From the NCBI GenBank assembly GCA_965248835.1, contig CBDFLJ010000002.1, positions 1,248,001-1,312,000 of the forward strand: a stretch of DNA of 64,000 nt, read 5' to 3'. Origin of the DNA: Alphaproteobacteria bacterium. GTDB lineage: Bacteria; Pseudomonadota; Alphaproteobacteria; MPNO01. Positions 25,800 through 61,081 of this stretch are shown piece after piece; within the stretch, counting starts at the first letter, position 1, and the number at the start of each line of letters is the position of its first letter. The position numbers were made by a program, and so were the translations under genes. A model generated the notes under the pieces. It was not told where the DNA came from. It saw only the letters and a program-made list of their open reading frames with translations, and searched no databases.

Positions 25800-27936
<2,137 letters not shown>

Positions 27937-27940
27937 AGCG

Positions 27941-29581
<1,641 letters not shown>

Positions 29582-37541: not shown

Positions 37542-39636
37542 GCCGTCCAGGGCCGCAGCCCCCTGCCCTGAGCGACGCTGCGCACGCGGACCGTATCTCC
37601 CTCCGACCACAGCGCGTGCGCACCGTTGCTGTAGCGCGCACGGCGATCGATGATTGGATCCGGGCCACGGCAGCGCCATCGCTTTACGGCAACCGCCGCG
37701 ATCACTGCCGCCGCCCTGGCGCAGTCCTCCAGCAGTGCGGCGCGGTCGGTGACGATCGCAACCACTGGGCCCGTGCCGGCACGCACACATCCCAGGCGGT
37801 CGCAGGCGAGCTGGCCTGCCGCCGGTGCGCCTGGGCGAGGCCAGGGCGCTGCCGCACCCAGCCCGGCACGGCGCAGCCACAGATCGCGGGTATAGCTACG
37901 GGTGCCGGGCGAGACCGCGAGCCCGCCGTCGGCGAGCCGCACAGCGAAGGCTCCAGGCGCCCGGCCGGCAAAGATATCGGGCGGCCGATCCAGCAGCGCG
38001 ATGGGAATTGCCGCGAGCATGGGCAGAACGCCCGCCAGGCGCAAACGGCCCTGCCACAGCGCGAGCCACAAGCCACCCGCCGCCACCGCGACCAGGCATG
38101 CGACCGGCACCGCGCGGACCAGAAGCACCGCATCGGGCCAGGACGAGACTTCGCGCGCAACGGCGACGACCGCACCGATCCCCCAACCCATCGGTGTCAG
38201 TGCCAGCCCTTCCAGCCCCAAGCACATCAGGGCGAAGGCGGCGATCGCCCACGGCATGATCCATAACCCGGTGATTGGGATCGCGATCAGGTTGGCGATC
38301 ACGCCATAAAGCGCGAACCGGTTGAAGTGATAGATCGCAAACGGCGCGGTGGCCGAGCCGGCGATCAGCGTGGTGAGCGCAATTCCCGCGCCATAGAGCA
38401 CGAGCCGGCGCGCCGGTCCGGCATCGCTTCTGAACGCTGCCAGCCGCTGGGCGTTGGCCTCGTAGAGGCGACAAGAGCGACGACGGCGGCGAAAGAGAGC
38501 TGGAAGCTGGCGCTGAGCACGCTTTCCGGCGAGATAAGCAGGACGACCGCGCCTGAGACGGCAACCAGCCGCATCGAGATCGGGTTGCGGTCGAGGATAA
38601 TCGCCAGGAGGACGATGCCCAGCATCAGGAACGCGCGCTGCGTCGGGATCGAAGCGCCTGAGATCACGAGGTATCCGAGCGCGCCGATGAACGCGCCCAC
38701 GGCGGCCCATTTTTTGATCGGGTAGCGCAGCGCTAGCGCGGGTACCGACGCCATCGCCCCGCGCAGCACACCGAACAGCAGTCCCGCAACCAGGGCGAAA
38801 TGAAGCCCGGAGATTGCCAGCAGGTGCGCAAGCCCTGAATCGCGAATCGCAGCCAGGATCTCGGGTGGGATCGCGCGGCGCTCCCCGGTGGTCAGCGCCG
38901 CCGCAATCGCGTTCTCCGGTGCCGGCAGGGCGGCCAGGATCCGCGCGGTCACTGCGTGACGGAGCCCGTTGATGGCTGCGCGAAGCCCCGGGGTGTCCGG
39001 CCCTGGCGCCACCTGCGCGGTCCCGAGCGCGAAGCCGACCGCGCCGATCCCATCAAAATAGGCCCGCCGGGCGAAATCGAACGCGCCAGGCGCGGCGGGT
39101 TCGGGCGGCGGTTGAAGGATCGCAAGCGCGCGCAACCGCGTGCCCGGCGCCGGGTCGGCAGCGGCCCGGCGGACCCTTATCCGGATCCGCCGGGGAGAGG
39201 AAGCGGGATCATGCCCGACGATCAGCGGATCGGCCAACCGCAAGCGCCAACCGCCGACCCCGTCAGGCGAGGCCGCCTCGATGAGCCCTTCGACCATTAC
39301 CGGCCCCAGCCGTTTGTCCAGAACGGGCGCAGCTACCGTGGCGGTGCGGAGCTGGGCAACGCCAAAGCCCAGCCCGGCGACGCCCGCGACCAACAGAGCC
39401 GGTGCCGCTCCATGGCGGTACAAACCGACGGCCGGCACCATCAGCAGCGCGCATGCGAGGCCCAGCCAGCCTGCGGGCTCGGCCGGAAGGGCGAAGTAGA
39501 CGGCGATGCCCAGCCCGAGCGCCGGCGCCAGCCAGAGGACCCAGCGATCGCGCTGCGCGGCGATCTCCCGTATCGGCGCCAGGCACGCACGCACACCCGC
39601 TGCGCCGGATGCGAAATACGCGCTCAGCCCGGCCAT
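37505..39636 (-). pseudogene. comEC: ComEC/Rec2 competence protein, frameshifted near 38466
   Basis: FDFARRAYF, SGLAHLLAISGLH, PTQRA, SFQLSFAAV in one frame; YEA...APFAIYHFNR, ANLIAIP in the next; lexA-comEC-gltX order. Confidence 0.88.
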
Positions 39637-41209: not shown

Positions 41210-42541
41210 ATGAGCGATGACTCGTCGGCCGCCGTGGCGATACCTCCCAAAGACAGCGTGTCCGTGACCAACAACGCAAGCGGCGAGACGGTTACGATGC
41301 CTGTCCTGCAAGGCACCGCCGGCCCGAAGGTCATCGATATCCGGAAGCTTTACGCCACAACGGATATGTTCACCTATGACCCGGGCTATACGGCGACGGG
41401 AAGCTGTGAGTCCAAGATCACCTATATCGACGGCGACAAAGGCGTCCTGCTGCACCGCGGCTATGCGATCGACGAGCTGGCGATCCAAAGCGACTTCATG
41501 GAAGTCTGCTATCTGCTGCTCTACGGCGAGCTTCCGACCCATGACCAGAAGGAGACTTTCGTTACCGCGATCACCCGTCACACGATGGTTCACGAGCAAC
41601 TGCACAAGTTCATCGACGGGTTCAGGCGCGATGCCCATCCGATGGCGATCATGTGCGGCGTCGTCGGCGCGCTGTCCGCGTTCTATCACGACAGCACCGA
41701 CATCGCAGATGCCCGCCAGCGGATGATCGCCTCCTACCGGATGATCGCCAAGATGCCCACCTTGGCCGCGTGGGCGTTCAAATACTCGCTTGGCCAGCCA
41801 TTCATCTACCCGCGGAACGACCTCTCCTATGCGGAGAACCTGATCCATATGTTGTTCGCCACGCCGTGCGAGGACTACGAGATAAGCCCGGTCGTCGCCA
41901 GGGCGCTGGACCGCATACTGATCCTGCACGCCGATCACGAGCAGAACGCCTCGACCTCGACGGTGCGCCTGGCCGGCTCCAGCGGCGCCAACCCGTTCGC
42001 CTGCATCGCCGCGGGGATTGCAAGCCTGTGGGGACCGGCCCACGGCGGCGCCAACGAGGCGGTGCTCAACATGCTCAATGAGATCGGCAGCACCAACCGG
42101 ATCGCCGAGTTCATCGAGCGCGCAAAGAACCCCGAGGATCCGTTCCGGCTGATGGGCTTCGGCCATCGGGTCTACAAGAACTTCGATCCGCGCGCGCGCC
42201 TGATGCGCGAGTCCTGCCACGAGGTGCTCAACGAGATGGGGATCCACGACGAGCCGCTTTTGGAGCTCGCGATGGAGCTCGAGCGGATCGCGCTGGAGGA
42301 CGACTACTTCGTCGAGCGCAGGCTCTATCCCAATGTCGACTTCTATTCGGGCATCATCTTCAAGGCGATCGGCATCCCGGTCACCATGTTCACGGTCATC
42401 TTCGCGGTCGCACGCACCGTCGGCTGGGTCGCCCAGTGGAACGAGATGATCGAGGACCCGAACCAGAAGATCGGCCGGCCCCGCCAGCTCTACACCGGCC
42501 CCGACCAGAGAGCCTTCGTGCCTCTGAGCGAGCGCACCTAA
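41210..42541 (+). CDS. gltA: Citrate synthase (type II)
   Basis: [40 protein letters not shown]. Confidence 0.98.
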
Positions 42542-42951
42542 GCGCGCTGGATCAACTCGATGCGGTAGCCGTCGGGATCTTCAATGAAGGCCATATGAGT
42601 CTGGCTGCCGCCGAACTTCATCGGGCCCGGCTTGCGCGGCACGCTGACCCCCTCGCCTTCGAGCGCCTCGCAGACGCCGTAGACGTCCGGCACGCCGACT
42701 GCGAGGTGGCCGAACGCCGAACCGAGCTCGTAGGCCTCTTCCTGATCCCAGTTATGGGTCAGCTCGATGACCGTCGTTGCGCTCTCATCGCCGTATCCGA
42801 GAAAGGCCAGAGTGAACCGCCCGTCAGGGAACTCCCGGCGGCGCAGAACCTTCATCCCGAGATGGCGGGTGTAGAAATCGATCGATTTATCGAGATCCAG
42901 CACCCGCAGCATCGTGTGAAGAAACCGGTAGTTCGTCGCGGCATCGCTCAT
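42538..42951 (-). CDS. gloA: Lactoylglutathione lyase (glyoxalase I)
   Basis: [29 protein letters not shown]. Confidence 0.96.
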
Positions 42952-43075
42952 ATTTTATCTCCCTCCTCGGCGCACGCGACAGTCTGCTGCCGGCGTGCGA
43001 TCTCCAGAACCATGTCGGCCGCCCTTGCGCTCGGCCGCAGCCCGACTAGGCAAAGCGCCGCGATCGCGCGGCTCG
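42948..43075 (-). pseudogene. lpxB: lpxB C-terminal relic
   Basis: SRAIAALCLVGLRPSARAADMVLEIARR...* resembles the LpxB tail (ALxxLGLGGxxPSxRAAxxVL); stop overlaps gloA start (ATGA); syntenic position. Confidence 0.6.
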
Positions 43076-43149
43076 GGGGCGGCGGCCAAGCGGCCACCGC
43101 CGCCTCGCTCTGCCTAGCCTGGGGGCGATCACGGGCATCACGGGCGATA

Positions 43150-43230
43150 GAACGGGCCGACTCAACAATAAGAGCCTATACGCTCGCCATCAGCCGGCGA
43201 AGCACCGGGGTGGACATCGATCGTGTCTGC
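43150..43230 (-). pseudogene. lpxA: lpxA N-terminal relic
   Basis: TIDVHPGASPADGERIGSYC*VGP directly after fabZ resembles the LpxA start (IHPTA..PGA.LADGV.IGPYC.VGP); no start codon, stop at 43162-43164. Confidence 0.65.
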
Positions 43231-43704
43231 CTATTGCTCGACGATCATCGCGGCGTAGGTCGCCTCGGCAACGACCGTCCCGGCGACGACGGCCTTGCCG
43301 GCGAATTTCCACACGTTCCCGCGCATCTGCAGCTTCTCGACCTCGATGTGCACCGAATCTCCCGGTACGACCGGCTTGCGGAACCGCGCGCTGTCGATCG
43401 ACATGAAATAGACCAGCTTGCCCTCAGCCTCCGGTCCAAGGGTATGAACGACCAAAACCGCAGAGGTCTGCGCCATCGCTTCGATCAGCAGCACCCCGGG
43501 CATGACCTTATGGTGGGGGAAGTGCCCCATGAAATGCGGCTCGTTGACGGATACATTCTTCAAGCCGGTCGCCCGGACGGCCGGCACAAGCTCGAGGATC
43601 CGGTCGATCATCAAGAACGGATATCGGTGCGGAATCATCTCCATGACCCGCGCGATATCCATGCCTTCCAGTGTTTTCTCGGTCTCTACGGTGTCCATCT
43701 TCAT
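43231..43704 (-). CDS. fabZ: 3-hydroxyacyl-ACP dehydratase
   Basis: IPHRYPFLMIDR, GHFP, MPGVLLIEAMAQ, FRKPVVPGD. Confidence 0.97.
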   Translation of the reverse strand: MKMDTVETEKTLEGMDIARVMEMIPHRYPFLMIDRILELVPAVRATGLKNVSVNEPHFMGHFPHHKVMPGVLLIEAMAQTSAVLVVHTLGPEAEGKLVYFMSIDSARFRKPVVPGDSVHIEVEKLQMRGNVWKFAGKAVVAGTVVAEATYAAMIVEQ

Positions 43705-44180
43705 CCGCTGTTCTTATCCGCGAGCCGTTTCAAGGTGGCGACGCCGCGAAAGTATTTGCTGGCCGGCATTAACGGGTAGCCGGCCACGTCTCGCCGTCAC
43801 CGACTTTGCGCGTCATCCCCGCTTTCGCGCCAACCTAGGCCCCTTCCCCTTTGCCAATCTTCAAATGTCCAGCGGCATTACCCTGGGCAGCAATGGCGGC
43901 GTACCCACTGAGGGTCGTGCTTCCCAATATTCCGGCTTGGGCAACGACGATGCAACCTTGTCCAAGGATGACGTTGTGCCCGATCTTGAGCAAATTATCA
44001 ATCCTGGACCATCGGCCGATGACCCTATCGTGCCCCGCCCCGCGATCAATGATCGAATTGGCCCCGATCTCAATATCGTCCTCGATGACAACGTGGCTTT
44101 CTGGAGCGGCGCCGCACCGCGGATCGAGCGATCCGCGTCGGCGCCGCTGGACAGTTCCGCACCGGCGAGCCCGGACAGTC
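43701..44180 (-). pseudogene. lpxD: lpxD pseudogene (UDP-3-O-acylglucosamine N-acyltransferase)
   Basis: [25 protein letters not shown] / [18 protein letters not shown]...[14 protein letters not shown]...GHLKIG..* / VAGYP...VATLKRLA*; no start, large internal deletion near 44094, TAG at 43835-43837, frameshift near 43788. Confidence 0.9.
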
Positions 44181-44188
44181 GCCGTGGT

Positions 44189-44785
44189 CTATTTCTTGGT
44201 CTTCGATCCACCGGGCGAAGCGGCCTTGGGCATGGTCACCTTGACCGAAGGCAGTATCTTGTTCACCCGCTCGAGCACTTCCTTGGTGATGTCGAGGTTT
44301 TTGGCCGACAGGATGATGATCGATTTGGGCAGCACCAGATCGAGCTTACGCTCGTTGGCGATCTTCGCTGCACCGACCAGCATCGATTGCTGCACCTTGC
44401 CAATCGCGATGTTGTAGGCGCTGTCGAGCTGGCGCTTGCGGATCTGGAACTCGGTCTGTGCCGCGCGCGCCTTGGTTTCGTACTCTCGCCGCTTCTTGGC
44501 GAAGGCATCAGGGGACAGGATCGCCCGTTGGCGCTGCAGATCCTGGCTCGCCTTGCGTAACTCGCCCTCGCGCTTGCGGACGGCGGCCTGATAGGTCGCG
44601 TGCAGATTTTCGATCTGCGGCCGGATGCTCTTGGAGGCCTTGGAATCGCGAAGGATGGATTGGACGTCGACCACCGCAATGGACGGGGACGAATCCTGCG
44701 CGCCGGCCGGCGGAGTCCAGGCCAGGACGGCGGCGATCAGGATGGACGCCGTGCTGATTTGCCACCGAAGCGTTGTCGATTGCAT
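44189..44785 (-). CDS. OmpH/Skp family outer-membrane chaperone
   Basis: Signal peptide, IAVVDVQ, coiled coils, DITKEVL; follows bamA. Confidence 0.9.
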   Translation of the reverse strand: MQSTTLRWQISTASILIAAVLAWTPPAGAQDSSPSIAVVDVQSILRDSKASKSIRPQIENLHATYQAAVRKREGELRKASQDLQRQRAILSPDAFAKKRREYETKARAAQTEFQIRKRQLDSAYNIAIGKVQQSMLVGAAKIANERKLDLVLPKSIIILSAKNLDITKEVLERVNKILPSVKVTMPKAASPGGSKTKK

Positions 44786-44792
44786 GGCTGGC

Positions 44793-47081
44793 CTATAACC
44801 TCGCCCCGAAACTGAAATGGATGAGCTGGCGCTCGTCGAAGCTCTCATCGAGCAGCGGCTTGGCGATGTTGATTTGGATCGGTCCCAAGGGCGACCACCA
44901 ACCTATGCCAACGCCGACGCTCATCCGCAAGCTGCCGGTGTCTTTGATCCCGTCGAAGCGCCCCTCGGTTCCGCCCAGGCTGCCGAAATCGCTGAACACG
45001 CGGCCGCGGATCCCGAATTCGTTGGGCAGGCCCAGCGGGAAGAACACCCCGAGCGTGCCGCGGTAGAACCATTTTCCGCCGACCGCATCGCCAGTGGTGG
45101 TGTCGCGCGGGCCGACGCCGGCGATGGTAAAGCCGCGCAGGTCCTCGCCACCCAAAAAGAACCGGTCGAGGATCCGGATATCGTCGCCCAGGCCGAAGAT
45201 ATAGCCTCCGCCGATTCCGGTGAAGGCGGTCAGGTCCTCGGTCATGGGATAGAATGCCTCGGCCCAGACCTCGTTCTTCAGGAAGCGTTCAGTCCCGCCG
45301 ATGCCGGCGAACTCGTTGTCCAGGCTGACCAGCACACCGCTTTTGGTATCGAAGCGGGAATCCCGCGTGTCATAGGCTAGCACATGGCCGATCGCCGAGA
45401 CCGAGCTGTTGCCCGCCTGGTCCCGAATTTCCGGCGAGGCGTTGGCGCTGATGTCGGTGACGTCGTCGCGGCGCAGTGTGTAGCGCCAGCGCTCCGAGAC
45501 ATTCTCGTTGACCTTGTAGCCGACGCGCAGCCGGAAGCCGAGCGTGTCGCGGTCGAAGGAGCTTTCGCTCTGGAGGTCACGCGCGGTGCTGAACAGATCG
45601 AACCCGGCGCTGAGGTTCCGATCCAGGAAATACGGCTCGGTGAAGCCGAGATCGATCTGCTGCTGGCGCTGGCCGAGCTGAAGGCTGAGGCGCAGGTCCT
45701 GGCCTCGACCGACGAGGTTGCGCTCTCGGAGCGTAATGTCGCCGAGCACGCCGCTGGACGAGGAATATCCGGCGCCGAAGGAAATTTCGCCGGTCGACTG
45801 CTCCTTGACGTCGACTTCGATGACCGTCCGGTCAGGCGCGGATCCCGGCACGTTATTGACCGCAATCTCCTGGAAGAATCCCAGGTTGCGCAGGTCGCGC
45901 CTGGCGCGTCGGATGTGCTCGGTATTGAACGCATCGCCCTCGACGATGCGGAACTCGCGGCGCAGCACCTGGTCCTGCGTGCGCACGTTGCCGCGGATAT
46001 CGATCCGCTCGACGAAGACCCTCGGGCCCTCCTGGATGTTGAAGGTGATGTTGATCCGGCGCTCCTCGCGCTCGCGCCGTACCCGCGGCCGAACATCGAC
46101 GAAGGCATAGCCGACCTTGCCGGCGGCATCGGAGAGCTTGCCAATGGTGCGCTCGACGGCATCGGCGTCGTACCAATCCCCCTCGTCGAACTCGAGCTTC
46201 TGCTTGAGCACCTGCGGATCGAGGTCCCGCAAAGCGGTAGAGATTTCGAGCTTGCCGAACTTGTAGCGTTCGCCCTCCTCGATCGTGAACGTGATGAAAA
46301 AAGCCTCACGGTCGGGCGCCAGCTCGGCCACCGCGGAGACCACGCGGAAATCGGCATAGCCTTCGCTGAGATACTTGCGCCGCAGCAGCTCGCGATCGAA
46401 GGTCAGGCGGTCCGGGTCGTAGCTGTCGCCGCCGGACAGGAAGCGCCAAAATGCGGACTCCTTGGTCTCGATCACCCCGCGCAACGTGCTGTCCGAAAAT
46501 CGACGGTTGCCGATGAAGGTGATTGAGCGGATGCCGGTAAGGCTGCCCTCTTCGATCTCGAGGACCAGATCCACCCGGTTCTGCGGTAGCTGGATGACCT
46601 TGGGCACGACACGGGCCGCGAACCGGCCGCTACGCCGGTAGATCTCGATGATCCGCTGGACATCGGCCTGTACCCGCGTGCGGGTGAACACCACGCGCGG
46701 CTGCAGCCTGATCTCCTGCATGAGCGAGTCGTCTTCGATCCGTTTGTTGCCCTCGAAGGCGATGCGGTTGATGATCGGGTTCTCGACGACGCGGACGATC
46801 ACGCTCGCGCCTTCGCCACGGATCGTCACGTCGGCGAACAGGCCGGTGGCGAACAGCGCCTTGAGGGATTTGTCGAACGCCTCCTCGTCGGCGACATCGC
46901 CACGCTTGAAGGTCATATAGGACCTTATGGTCTCTGCCTCGATCCGCTGCGAGCCTTCGACCTGGATCCGTTCGACTATCCGCTCACCCGTCTGCGCGCC
47001 GGCCAGACCTGCCAAAAGGCAGGCAAGCCCGATGACCGCAATCGCCCATCGCCCTGAAACCCGGCCCGCCATCGAAGGCAC
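44793..47081 (-). CDS. bamA: Outer membrane protein assembly factor BamA
   Basis: POTRA repeats, EQSTGEISFGAG, FTEPYF, LRGF, WWSPLGP. Confidence 0.97.
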   Translation of the reverse strand: MPSMAGRVSGRWAIAVIGLACLLAGLAGAQTGERIVERIQVEGSQRIEAETIRSYMTFKRGDVADEEAFDKSLKALFATGLFADVTIRGEGASVIVRVVENPIINRIAFEGNKRIEDDSLMQEIRLQPRVVFTRTRVQADVQRIIEIYRRSGRFAARVVPKVIQLPQNRVDLVLEIEEGSLTGIRSITFIGNRRFSDSTLRGVIETKESAFWRFLSGGDSYDPDRLTFDRELLRRKYLSEGYADFRVVSAVAELAPDREAFFITFTIEEGERYKFGKLEISTALRDLDPQVLKQKLEFDEGDWYDADAVERTIGKLSDAAGKVGYAFVDVRPRVRREREERRINITFNIQEGPRVFVERIDIRGNVRTQDQVLRREFRIVEGDAFNTEHIRRARRDLRNLGFFQEIAVNNVPGSAPDRTVIEVDVKEQSTGEISFGAGYSSSSGVLGDITLRERNLVGRGQDLRLSLQLGQRQQQIDLGFTEPYFLDRNLSAGFDLFSTARDLQSESSFDRDTLGFRLRVGYKVNENVSERWRYTLRRDDVTDISANASPEIRDQAGNSSVSAIGHVLAYDTRDSRFDTKSGVLVSLDNEFAGIGGTERFLKNEVWAEAFYPMTEDLTAFTGIGGGYIFGLGDDIRILDRFFLGGEDLRGFTIAGVGPRDTTTGDAVGGKWFYRGTLGVFFPLGLPNEFGIRGRVFSDFGSLGGTEGRFDGIKDTGSLRMSVGVGIGWWSPLGPIQINIAKPLLDESFDERQLIHFSFGARL

Positions 47082-48257
47082 TCAGGTCACTAGCTCGACA
47101 AAGAAATCGAACACCCTCAGCTGCACCAGGTCGTTCCATGTCACGAAGATCATCAACGCCAAGACCATCGCAAGGCCCAGACGATAACCGTACTCGCGGG
47201 CGCGCCGGCCGAGCGGCCGTCTGGCAACGGCTTCGATCGCATAGAACATCAAGTGTCCACCATCCAACATCGGGATCGGGAAAAGATTAATCAGCCCCAG
47301 ATTGATCGACAAGGCGGCGACGAACAATAGCATGCTGACCACGCCAGCCTGCCAAACATCCCCGGATATCTGGGCGATCCGCAAAGGACCGCCGAGCTCG
47401 CTGGCGTCTCGGGTTCCAGTGAACATCTGTCCCAGAGCCTGGAAGATGCCCCCGATCATCGAGAACATGTCATGGACCGCGCGCACCACCGCGGTTGCCG
47501 GGTCGTGACGGACGATATGGACCGGCCCGCCGCTGCGACTGACGCCGAGCCGGCCGATCAGCTCACGCGTGCCGAAACTGTTGGTCTGGCGGATCGCGTC
47601 GGGAACGGCGGTCAGCACGACGGTGCGACCATCCCGCTCGACCTCGATTTGCAGCCTTTCGCCGGGCGCAATGCGCACGATGCGCACGACCTGCTCGAAC
47701 CGGTCGATCACGGTACCGTCGATCTTCGTGATCGAGTCTCCGGGCTTGAAGCCCGCACGCTCGGCCGCGCTGTCGGGCACGACGGCGGAAATGTTCGCCG
47801 GCGTGGACGGCTCGCCGACGGTGGCAAAGATCGCTGCCAAGATGAGGATGGCGAACAGGAAGTTCGCCAGCGGGCCAGCGGCGACGATCGCGGCGCGGCG
47901 CCACAGCGCCTTGGTATGGAAGCTCGCCCGGCGCTCCTCGTCGCTCGCGTCCGCGTCCGCCTCTGCGGTTTCCGGCCCGGCGATCATCTCGCCGAACATC
48001 TTCACGTAGCCGCCGATCGGAACCGCGCTGAACCTCCAGCGAGTCGCCTGGGAGTCGGTCCAGCCATAGAGTTCCGGGCCGAAGCCGATCGAGAACACCT
48101 CGACCCGCACGCCGCACCACCGCGCGACGAGGTAATGGCCCATTTCGTGGACGAACACCAGCGCCGTGAGCGCGACCAGGAAGGGAATCACGTAGTCGAT
48201 CAAGAAGCCCGCAAACGACAGCGCGAGACCTCCCAGGCCGGTCGCAACGTCGATCAC
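47082..48257 (-). CDS. rseP: RIP metalloprotease RseP
   Basis: HEMGH, FSIGFG, GGYVKM, PDZ domain, NLFPIPMLDGGH. Confidence 0.96.
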   Translation of the reverse strand: MIDVATGLGGLALSFAGFLIDYVIPFLVALTALVFVHEMGHYLVARWCGVRVEVFSIGFGPELYGWTDSQATRWRFSAVPIGGYVKMFGEMIAGPETAEADADASDEERRASFHTKALWRRAAIVAAGPLANFLFAILILAAIFATVGEPSTPANISAVVPDSAAERAGFKPGDSITKIDGTVIDRFEQVVRIVRIAPGERLQIEVERDGRTVVLTAVPDAIRQTNSFGTRELIGRLGVSRSGGPVHIVRHDPATAVVRAVHDMFSMIGGIFQALGQMFTGTRDASELGGPLRIAQISGDVWQAGVVSMLLFVAALSINLGLINLFPIPMLDGGHLMFYAIEAVARRPLGRRAREYGYRLGLAMVLALMIFVTWNDLVQLRVFDFFVELVT

Positions 48258-59157: not shown

Positions 59158-59844
59158 CTATGACCGTCGGATCAACCCGTCCTCGAGTACCAGGCGACGG
59201 TCCATGCGCTCGGCGAGCTCCGGGTTGTGGGTGGCGATCAGGGCGGCGGCACCGCGGCCACGGACAATCTCGACCAGGAGCTCGAAGACCGCGCCGGCGG
59301 TCCGACGGTCGAGGTTGCCGGTCGGCTCGTCAGCGATCAGCACGCTCGGCTCGTTGGCCAGCGCGCGGGCGATCGCCACGCGTTGTTGCTCGCCGCCAGA
59401 CAGCCGCGCCGGACGGTGGCTTGCCCGATCGGCGAGCCCAACCTGGGCGAGCAGCGCCTCGGCCATACCGCGCGCAGTGCGCCGCGCCGCCCCGTCGATC
59501 ATCCGCGGCAGGGCGACGTTTTCCAGCGCGGAGAACTCGGGCAGCAGGTGGTGGAACTGGTAGACGAAGCCGAGTTCGGATCGGCGCAGCGCGGTGCGGC
59601 GGTCATCGCTCATCTCCGCGCAGTCCTCGCCGGCCAGACGGATCGAGCCGGCGCTCGGCCGATCGAGAAGCCCAGCGATGTGGAGCAGCGTCGACTTGCC
59701 GGCGCCCGAGGGTCCGACCAGGGCGACGATCTGGCCGGGATGGATCGCCAGCGATACGCCGCGCAGCACCTCCAGCCCGCCGCCCGCCTGGGCGTATATC
59801 TTGCGGATATCTTCCATTGCGAGCGCCGGGACGGGCTCAGCCAT
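59158..59844 (-). CDS. lolD: Lipoprotein-releasing ABC transporter ATP-binding protein
   Basis: [39 protein letters not shown]. Confidence 0.95.
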
Positions 59845-61081
59845 AGCGCAGTGCCTCGACAGGATCGAGCCGCGCCGCCCGCCATGCCGGATAGATCGTC
59901 GCCAGGAGCGACAGCGCGATCGATATCGCAATCACCGTCACGACGTCGCCGGCTTCCACTTTGGAGGGCAGGCGGGACAGGAAATAGATCTCGGCCGCGA
60001 ACAGCTCCGCCCCCGACAGGCTTTCGAGCCAGCGACGCAGGGTCTCGATATTGCTGGCGAACGCGAGGCCCAGGACGAAGCCGATGAGCGTGCCCAGCAC
60101 GCCCACCGAGGCCCCGGCCAGGAGGAAGACCCGCATCACCGCGCCGCGGGTGGCTCCCATGGTGCGCAGGATCGCGATGTCGCCGCCCTTGTCCTTCACC
60201 AGCATGATCAAGCTGGAGACGATGTTGAAGGCGGCAACCAGGATGATCAGCGTGAGGATCAAGAACATCACGTTGCGCTCGACCTTGATCGCGTTGAAGA
60301 AGGTCGCATTGGCCTGTTGCCAGTCGATGATCCGCACCGGCCCATCGGCGCTGGCGCGCAGCACCGGCGCAATCCGGTCGACCCGGTCGGGATCGTCAAT
60401 GAAGATCTCGAGCTGGCTGACAGCCTGCCCGGTGCGGAAATAGACCTGGGCCGCCTCCAGCGGCATGAAGATGAAGCCGTTGTCGTATTCGAACATGCCG
60501 ACTTCGAAGATCGCCGCCACCGTATATGTCTTGATCCGGGGCAGGGTTCCGAACGCGGTGGCCTTGGCCTGGGGCGCGATTAGGCGCAGCTTTGAGCCGG
60601 TGGTGAGCCCCATGCGCTGCGCGAGCCGCGTGCCGATCATCACCGCACTGCCGCCGCGAAAGGCCTCCAAACTGCCGGCTCGGATGTTCTCGGCCAGGAT
60701 GGAGCGCTTGGCGATATCGGCCGGCCGCATGCCGCGGACCAGCGCACCGCGAGCGACTTTGTTAGCGCTCGCCATTACCTGGCCTTCGACGATCGGAGTG
60801 ACGCTCTTCACGCCGGGCAGGACGCGCAGCCGCTCGGCAAGCGTGTCGAAGTCCTTCAGCGCACCGGTCTGGGCGCGGACGCCGATATGGCCGTTGAGCC
60901 CGAGGATCCGCGACAGCAGCTCGGCGCGGAATCCGTTCATCACCGACATCACGACGATCAGCGTCGCCACCCCGAGCGCGATTCCGGCGAGCGAGAAGCC
61001 GGCGATGACCGAGATGAATCCCTCTTCCCGCCGGGCGCGTAGGTAGCGGAAGGCGATCATCCGCTCGACGGGCGAGAACAT
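59837..61081 (-). CDS. Lipoprotein-releasing ABC transporter permease (LolC/E)
   Basis: [48 protein letters not shown]. Confidence 0.95.

Follow-up and report, generated by a model that had tools for sequence, protein, structure and literature searches.

Eroded lipid A genes and an acquired sphingolipid locus suggest replacement of lipopolysaccharide in an uncultured genus of Alphaproteobacteria

Lipid A is regarded as near-indispensable in diderm bacteria, and the few natural exceptions are too old to show the path by which it was lost. What, then, has happened in an alphaproteobacterium in which fabZ stands intact between fragments of the lipid A genes lpxD, lpxA and lpxB? The locus lies in a 64-kb stretch of DNA (hereafter the window; positions 1,248,001 to 1,312,000 of contig CBDFLJ010000002.1, assembly GCA_965248835.1), which an earlier note had read as the trace of a recent, independent loss of lipopolysaccharide (LPS) in a Rhodospirillales-like lineage, implying an unidentified replacement lipid in the outer leaflet. 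We show here that the lipid A genes at this locus have been destroyed and that the genus has acquired a sphingolipid locus, the product of which has probably taken the place of LPS. The window belongs to genome G000 (4.89 Mb in two contigs, C1 and C2, 100% marker completeness), and its genus is sampled by two further genomes, G001 (64% complete) and G002 (one contig, closed, 100% complete). These three were analysed within a set of 41 genomes of the family and order, 38 of them outside the genus, and gene order at the locus was compared over the 80 best loci retrieved with FabZ (L-numbers).

In the window, the 484 nt between skp and fabZ hold the last third of LpxD, which aligns at 51-60% identity to LpxD proteins of relatives (about residues 218-345) and is interrupted by an in-frame TAG and a change of frame near position 43787. 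The N-terminal two thirds of the gene have been deleted, leaving about 96 nt between the remnant and the skp stop. The interval on the other side of fabZ, up to gloA, measures 279 nt. We built hidden Markov models (HMMs) from the first 50 residues of 74 LpxA proteins and the last 70 residues of 55 LpxB proteins from relatives, and ran them on 1509 six-frame segments of the window, so that the E-values in Table 1 are on the window scale. The top LpxA N-terminal match, a weak one, was the segment directly after the fabZ stop, and the top LpxB C-terminal match was the segment directly upstream of gloA. Both positions agree with the order lpxD-fabZ-lpxA-lpxB-gloA/gltA-gltX in locus L002 of a sister genus, which has the same flanks as the window. 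No trace of lpxI was found by tblastn with three LpxI proteins (no family search covered LpxI, LpxH or LpxG), and none of the scars showed a sigma-70-like promoter. Two deletions flanking fabZ have destroyed the lpxD-fabZ-lpxA-(lpxI)-lpxB cluster, and between them survives fabZ, which fatty acid synthesis still needs. The earlier note had described just this arrangement, with bamA, skp and fabZ intact, lpxD, lpxA and lpxB eroded and lpxI missing, and the domain matches and similarity searches bear it out.

The lpxD scar of the closed genome G002 has a different shape, with about 26 first codons kept in a different frame, a different internal deletion and a premature stop. Between G000 and G002 the scar is 67.6% identical and its differences fall on the three codon positions as 34/28/31, plus indels, against 10/4/48 in fabZ and 34/16/61 in skp. 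The scar is therefore evolving neutrally. Its homology to LpxD, the loss of the N-terminal part, the broken frame and the neutral substitutions together make lpxD a pseudogene. The gene was dead before the two species split and has eroded separately since. The loss is recent in relative terms only, being older than the divergence of at least two species with 83% identical BamA proteins, and substitutions in the lpxD scar since then have been neutral.

Having only the window, the earlier note had left open whether functional copies lie elsewhere. In the complete genome G000, family searches for the Raetz pathway (LpxA, LpxC, LpxD, LpxB and LpxK) and for WaaA all stayed below cut-off (Table 1). 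LpxC was found in 37 of the 41 genomes and was absent from G000, G001, G002 and G018. LpxB was equally found in 37, being absent from the three genomes of the genus and from G004 (79% complete). WaaA, surveyed in 13 genomes (the three of the genus and 10 relatives), was present in 10, and the three without it are exactly the genus genomes. As G018 does have LpxB, an assembly gap probably accounts for its missing LpxC. Some 0.8 kb of non-coding DNA occupies the syntenic lpxC site of G000, between the ftsZ side and the downstream gene, and shows no significant similarity to LpxC; two short collinear matches at E ~1 are suggestive of a scar at most. The gene lpxC has been removed from its place after ftsZ.

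Could the lpx genes be present in the organism and simply be missing from the assembly? The assembly is of the metagenome type, its contig ends are duplicated and its 'contamination' is put at 9.5%, and a single gene can be missed, as the G018 genome illustrates with LpxB matched and LpxC not. Nevertheless, the genes missing here from a 100%-complete, two-contig assembly number six and come from three or more separate loci, LpxC, LpxB and WaaA are also missing from the closed single-contig genome of the genus, and both the pseudogene scars and the empty lpxC site lie within contiguous sequence. An assembly or binning artefact has a negligible probability and is excluded for practical purposes. 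The gene content of the genus supports the conclusion that it probably no longer makes lipid A.

In a tree of BamA, the genus fell in a clade of eight sequences (support 99), six of which are loci from alphaproteobacterial metagenome-assembled genomes (L002, L003, L004, L006, L007 and L008). In every one of these loci, lpxD and lpxA still stand next to fabZ. L002 lacks lpxI and has a broken lpxB, and the contig of L006 stops short of lpxB. The nearest named neighbours were Thalassospiraceae, Reyranellaceae, Dongiaceae, Acetobacteraceae and Magnetospirillaceae, and no sphingomonad occurred among the 80 best FabZ loci. The genus is accordingly placed in a Rhodospirillales-like family and outside the Sphingomonadales. 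Because the surrounding family and order are LPS-positive, and because BamA places the genus away from the sphingomonads, the loss is an independent one, as the earlier note had proposed.

Over the 80 FabZ loci as a whole, lpxD was seen in 67, lpxA in 74, lpxI in 70 and lpxB in 64, many of the misses being at contig ends. Six Azospirillum loci (L027, L037, L043, L044, L049 and L080) have skp followed by fabZ-lpxA-lpxI-lpxB with no lpxD between. Their lpxD must lie elsewhere, and a missing lpxD at that position is therefore no sign of LPS loss by itself. In the sister genus g6, two genomes have lpxB at its ancestral position split over three frames (L002, 11297-12893) and lack lpxI there, and each (G013, contig C6; G019, contig C364) has an intact LpxB elsewhere. 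The broken copy may reflect pseudogenisation with replacement, or consensus errors.

As to what fills the outer leaflet instead, the earlier note could name no lipid, and on this point it has to be revised. When 10 of the 11 class-I/II aminotransferase-family matches of G000 were scanned against NCBIfam, one proved to be a serine palmitoyltransferase (Spt; NF047599, 588 bits against a cut-off of 500). Spt was found in three of the 41 genomes, exactly those of the genus, and in none of the 38 relatives outside it. The gene lies in a locus of 11 genes (L111, Table 1), in which a DAGK_cat lipid kinase and a 305-aa protein directly adjoin spt and which also holds a pair of genes of the LptF/G family. 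G002 has the same 11 genes in the same order, with 62-88% amino acid identity. The nearest Spt proteins outside the genus are 59-75% identical, the named ones belonging to other Alphaproteobacteria, namely Parvularculaceae, Fodinicurvata, Geminicoccaceae and Algimonas; the guanine-cytosine content of the locus is that of the genome and no transfer RNA gene flanks it. The genus has acquired a Caulobacter-type sphingolipid locus, for which no donor can be named.

The likeness is to the locus of Caulobacter crescentus (bcerS, lptG2, lptF2, cpgABC, spt, acp, cerR, acs), which was compared by its description and has the same families in nearly the same order, so far as the accessible parts of the two papers give it (PMC11324152, PMC9393093). 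In those parts, a ceramide kinase (CpgB), a protein with no conserved domain (CpgC) and a PgsA-like protein (CpgA) are described, and the pathway also requires a nucleotidyltransferase (PMC11324152, PMC9393093). Among homologues of the 305-aa protein, some have PF09139, in agreement with a remark on Caulobacter CC_1161 in the available text (PMC11324152). Caulobacter can do without lipid A when it has ceramide phosphoglycerate (CPG) lipids, according to the portion consulted of the second paper (PMC9393093).

The genes for lipopolysaccharide transport (Lpt) show how such a lipid might reach the surface. LptD, LptC, LptA and LptB are kept in the genus, with an LptC-LptA-LptB operon behind kdsD. 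G000 has two genes of the LptF/G family, both inside the sphingolipid locus; in LPS-positive relatives, lptF-lptG adjoin lptD. A quick maximum-likelihood tree of 53 LptF/G sequences, with supports from the Shimodaira-Hasegawa-like approximate likelihood ratio test (SH-aLRT), resolved four clades. The genus pair fell in the spt-linked F2 (SH-aLRT 99) and G2 (80) clades, far from the F and G encoded next to lptD in its own family and order, which form clades of their own with support 99. No remnant of canonical lptFG was found genome-wide or near lptD, only the F2/G2 pair being matched, at 23-30% identity. By phylogeny, the sole LptF/G pair of the genus is the sphingolipid-type LptF2/G2, and the canonical pair has been lost. 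In Caulobacter, LptF2/G2 form a complex, bind the single LptB and become essential once the anionic sphingolipid is made, as stated in the accessible part of a preprint by Uchendu, Isom and Klein (bioRxiv 10.64898/2026.04.12.717747).

The same evidence bears on the idea that lipid A, or a similar anchor, is still made by non-homologous enzymes or by enzymes diverged beyond recognition, and that the pathway for 3-deoxy-D-manno-octulosonic acid (Kdo) and the Lpt bridge still serve it. KdsA, KdsD, a KdsB-like protein and LptB, LptC, LptA, LptD and LptE are indeed all kept. However, the Pfam models used here give E-values between 1e-90 and 1e-110 in relatives, which makes a sudden undetectability of the lpx genes implausible, lpxD is a visibly decaying pseudogene, and canonical LptFG has been lost. 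Moreover, Sphingomonas too keeps an Lpt system without LPS. We therefore regard continued synthesis by such enzymes as very improbable.

Taken together, it is probable that the genus lacks lipid A, has gained the sphingolipid locus and would carry an anionic phospho-sphingolipid in its outer leaflet, exported through LptF2/G2 and the native bridge. A lipid of the ceramide-phosphoglycerate type would fill the outer leaflet; LptB with LptF2/G2 would extract it from the inner membrane, and the retained LptC-LptA-LptD/E bridge would pass it on. Canonical LptFG, left without a substrate, would then have been lost.

A more modest version of events is that LPS was lost and the sphingolipid is made but remains minor, the leaflet consisting mostly of phospholipid, ornithine lipid, hopanoid or an unfamiliar Kdo glycolipid. 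The head group and the abundance of the sphingolipid are read from genes, and the Kdo genes are kept without a known acceptor, both of which leave room for it. Against it, Spt was gained exactly where Lpx was lost (three of three genomes in the genus and none of 38 relatives), a bridge fed by LptF2/G2 alone points to bulk surface export, and in a class-wide sample LpxC was missing far more often from genomes with Spt (described below). We hold a minor role for the sphingolipid to be unlikely. A crude scan of the genome with a motif for a hopanoid cyclase gave one match that did not resemble a cyclase.

Several observations weigh against replacement of LPS by an exported anionic sphingolipid. 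KdsA, KdsD and the KdsB-like gene are kept although WaaA, the only Kdo transferase known for lipid A, is lost, and with no WaaA their retention implies that some Kdo-containing product is still made. Fur, too, is still there: Caulobacter needs Fur to be inactivated in order to lose lipid A (the delta-lpxC delta-fur mutant), whereas G000 and G002 have three Fur-family genes each, like their relatives. LptE was found in G000 and not in G001 or G002, this being a weak family. LptF2 and LptG2 score 203 and 221 bits, below the NCBIfam cut-offs of 230 for LptF and 240 for LptG; such scores would fit a paralogue and prove no substrate. The SH-aLRT support of the G2 clade, in a quick tree, is only 80. 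The head group is assigned from Pfam domains and gene order only, and the CpgC-like protein has no Pfam match. Finally, the third genome of the genus is the 64%-complete one, and the whole case is built on the gene content of uncultured organisms. Whether Fur had gone together with lipid A, as it has in the Caulobacter mutant, was considered separately and is ruled out by the Fur-family count.

To place the genus in a wider setting, we used a sample of 401 genomes spread evenly across the class, counting a gene as Spt-like at E <= 1e-110. Spt-like genes were present in 52 of these and LpxC in 343 (a tally that takes in G279 and G080, both flagged unpublished and neither the subject of a separate claim). 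By manual cross-reading, and with related genomes not counting as independent, 30 genomes had Spt without LpxC, 22 had both and 28, mostly small genomes, had neither; LpxC was hence missing in 30 of 52 Spt-positive genomes as against 28 of 349 Spt-negative ones. The 30 span 18 coded families, some of them possibly sphingomonads, and in three further families (f116, f174 and f44) members with LpxC and without Spt stand beside members with Spt and without LpxC. As to the LptF/G family, five Spt-positive, LpxC-positive genomes of the class had four such genes each, and of five other Spt-positive, LpxC-negative genomes, four had just one pair, lying a few kb at most from spt. In the fifth, the closed 5.4-Mb genome G114, there is no LptF/G-family gene at all, so one or more lineages without LPS must have a different export route for their lipid.

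These counts suggest that the swap of LPS for sphingolipid was not a one-off in Alphaproteobacteria. More tentatively, and with less chance of being right than not, the swap to an anionic sphingolipid may be recurrent in the class, with the genus as a young instance, its scars still readable. Each swap would import an spt locus together with lptF2G2, the Raetz pathway and canonical LptFG would be discarded, and the native LptB-C-A-D/E bridge would be rewired for the sphingolipid. With the Kdo pathway kept and WaaA lost in this genus, the exported lipid, or another surface polymer, might carry Kdo through an unfamiliar transferase, giving a hybrid, LPS-like sphingolipid.

How does the genus compare with diderms already known to lack LPS? 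Anaplasmataceae, Borrelia and Treponema pallidum likewise have an outer membrane and BamA without a lipid A pathway. They are host-associated and have reduced genomes, in contrast to the 4.9 Mb of G000 with its full Lol, Bam and Lpt systems, and we know of no replacement of LPS by Lpt-exported sphingolipids among them. Sorangium cellulosum is another LPS-less diderm. The closest likeness is to Sphingomonas. In S. wittichii, for example, LpxC, LpxB and WaaA are absent and Spt is present, the spt-linked pair being the sole LptFG, and Sphingomonas without LPS keeps LptA, LptD, LptE and the whole Lpt system, with its only LptF/G pair adjoining the spt operon, to go by the available part of the preprint (bioRxiv 10.64898/2026.04.12.717747). 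The genus differs in belonging to another lineage, the family and order of which lack Spt in 38 of 38 genomes and have LpxC in 37 of 38, in that its lpxD, lpxA and lpxB scars can still be read, and in its head-group genes, which resemble the Caulobacter cpg set and not glycosphingolipid glycosyltransferases. Judged by these genes, the genus has reached the Sphingomonas configuration independently. Caulobacter, in turn, keeps LPS and both LptFG pairs, whereas the genus appears to have lost LPS synthesis naturally, together with the canonical pair, and LptC2 was not seen in it. By its gene content, the genus would add a new and independent case to the LPS-less bacteria already known to have an outer membrane of sphingolipid. 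We found no description of a non-sphingomonad alphaproteobacterium with natural lpx absence and spt in the literature searched, most subscription journals and supplements lying outside that search.

With its scars and its LPS-positive sister lineages, the genus makes the transition from LPS to sphingolipid readable. It would be a natural replicate of the laboratory result in Caulobacter, in which an anionic sphingolipid stands in for lipid A, and the presence of LptF2/G2 as the only such pair beside native LptB, LptC, LptA, LptD and LptE lends natural genetic support to sphingolipids travelling on the LPS bridge. Repeated swaps, as the class sample hints, would bear on endotoxin-based assumptions about environmental Gram-negative bacteria.

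Table 1 Features of the window and of genome G000. Plain coordinates are window positions; those with C1 or C2 are contig positions in G000. E-values of HMM matches are on the window scale.
Feature	Position	Strand	Evidence or remark
rseP, intact	47082-48257	-	
bamA, intact	44793-47081	-	five POTRA and Omp85 domains
skp/ompH, intact	44189-44848	-	PF03938, 75.5 bits
lpxD remnant	43710-44092	-	tblastn E 4e-31 against L002 LpxD
fabZ, intact	43231-43704	-	PF07977 (FabA domain), 112 bits; 89% identical to G002
lpxA 5' remnant, about 20 codons	43165-43230	-	HMM E 0.021, weak
lpxB 3' remnant, about 29 codons	42984-43070	-	HMM E 9.6e-5
gloA (glyoxalase I), downstream flank of lost lpxA-lpxB	42538-42951	-	PF00903, 86.7 bits
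gltA (citrate synthase), conserved flank	41210-42541	+	84% identical to positional counterpart in L002
gltX	beyond gltA	+	
kdsA (Kdo-8-phosphate synthase)	27085-27987	-	NF003543 424 bits, TIGR01362 400 bits, both above cut-off
lolCE	59837-61081	-	TIGR02212 498 bits, cut-off 362
lolD	59158-59931	-	TIGR02211 268 bits, best match, below cut-off 307
ComEC/Rec2-like open reading frame	38365-39636	-	423 aa
kdsD	G000:C1:1870005-1871090		
kdsB-like cytidylyltransferase	G000:C2:296599-297348		142.6 bits, cut-off 155
Syntenic lpxC site	G000:C1:462726-463543		non-coding
LpxD_N (PF04613)	whole G000		best 11.8 bits, cut-off 30.8
LpxC	whole G000		no match, cut-off 27
LpxB	whole G000		no match, cut-off 22.6
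LpxA C-domain	whole G000		best 13 bits, cut-off 24.5
LpxK	whole G000		best 11.6 bits, cut-off 27
WaaA N-domain	whole G000		no match, cut-off 23.9
CDP-alcohol phosphatidyltransferase, CpgA-like	locus L111, gene 1		CDP-OH_P_transf, 31 bits
Cytidylyltransferase	gene 2		40 bits
GNAT-like protein, candidate ceramide synthase	gene 3		397 aa; putative role
LptF-like (LptF2)	gene 4		
LptG-like (LptG2)	gene 5		
DAGK_cat lipid kinase, CpgB-like	gene 6		34.9 bits
305-aa protein, CpgC-like	gene 7		no Pfam match of its own
Spt (serine palmitoyltransferase)	gene 8, G000:C2:103406-104611		
Acyl carrier protein	gene 9		
NAD-dependent epimerase-type reductase, CerR-like	gene 10		
AMP-binding synthetase (acyl-ACP synthetase)	gene 11		

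The outer membrane machinery on which the earlier note relied is present, BamA, Skp and LolCE clearly so and LolD as the best match to its model, under the cut-off. Nine ATP-binding cassette (ABC) candidates for MsbA were collected with two short motifs; the best reached 490 bits against an equivalog cut-off of 602, and one candidate is the 'MsbA_rel' protein TIGR02204 (838 bits). A UDP-glucose dehydrogenase gene adjoins the kdsB-like gene.

In the assembly of G000, C1 has a copy of the end of C2 at each of its two ends (about 9.5 kb apiece), and C1:271259-294985 duplicates C2:1-23721 at 98.8% identity; these duplications are the probable cause of the 9.5% 'contamination'. A further 83 or so repeat intervals (>=900 bp, >=95% identity, resembling insertion sequences) make up about 4.6% of the genome, and none of them falls in the window. 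The ComEC/Rec2-like open reading frame of the window matches part of the 663-position ComEC model and may be truncated.

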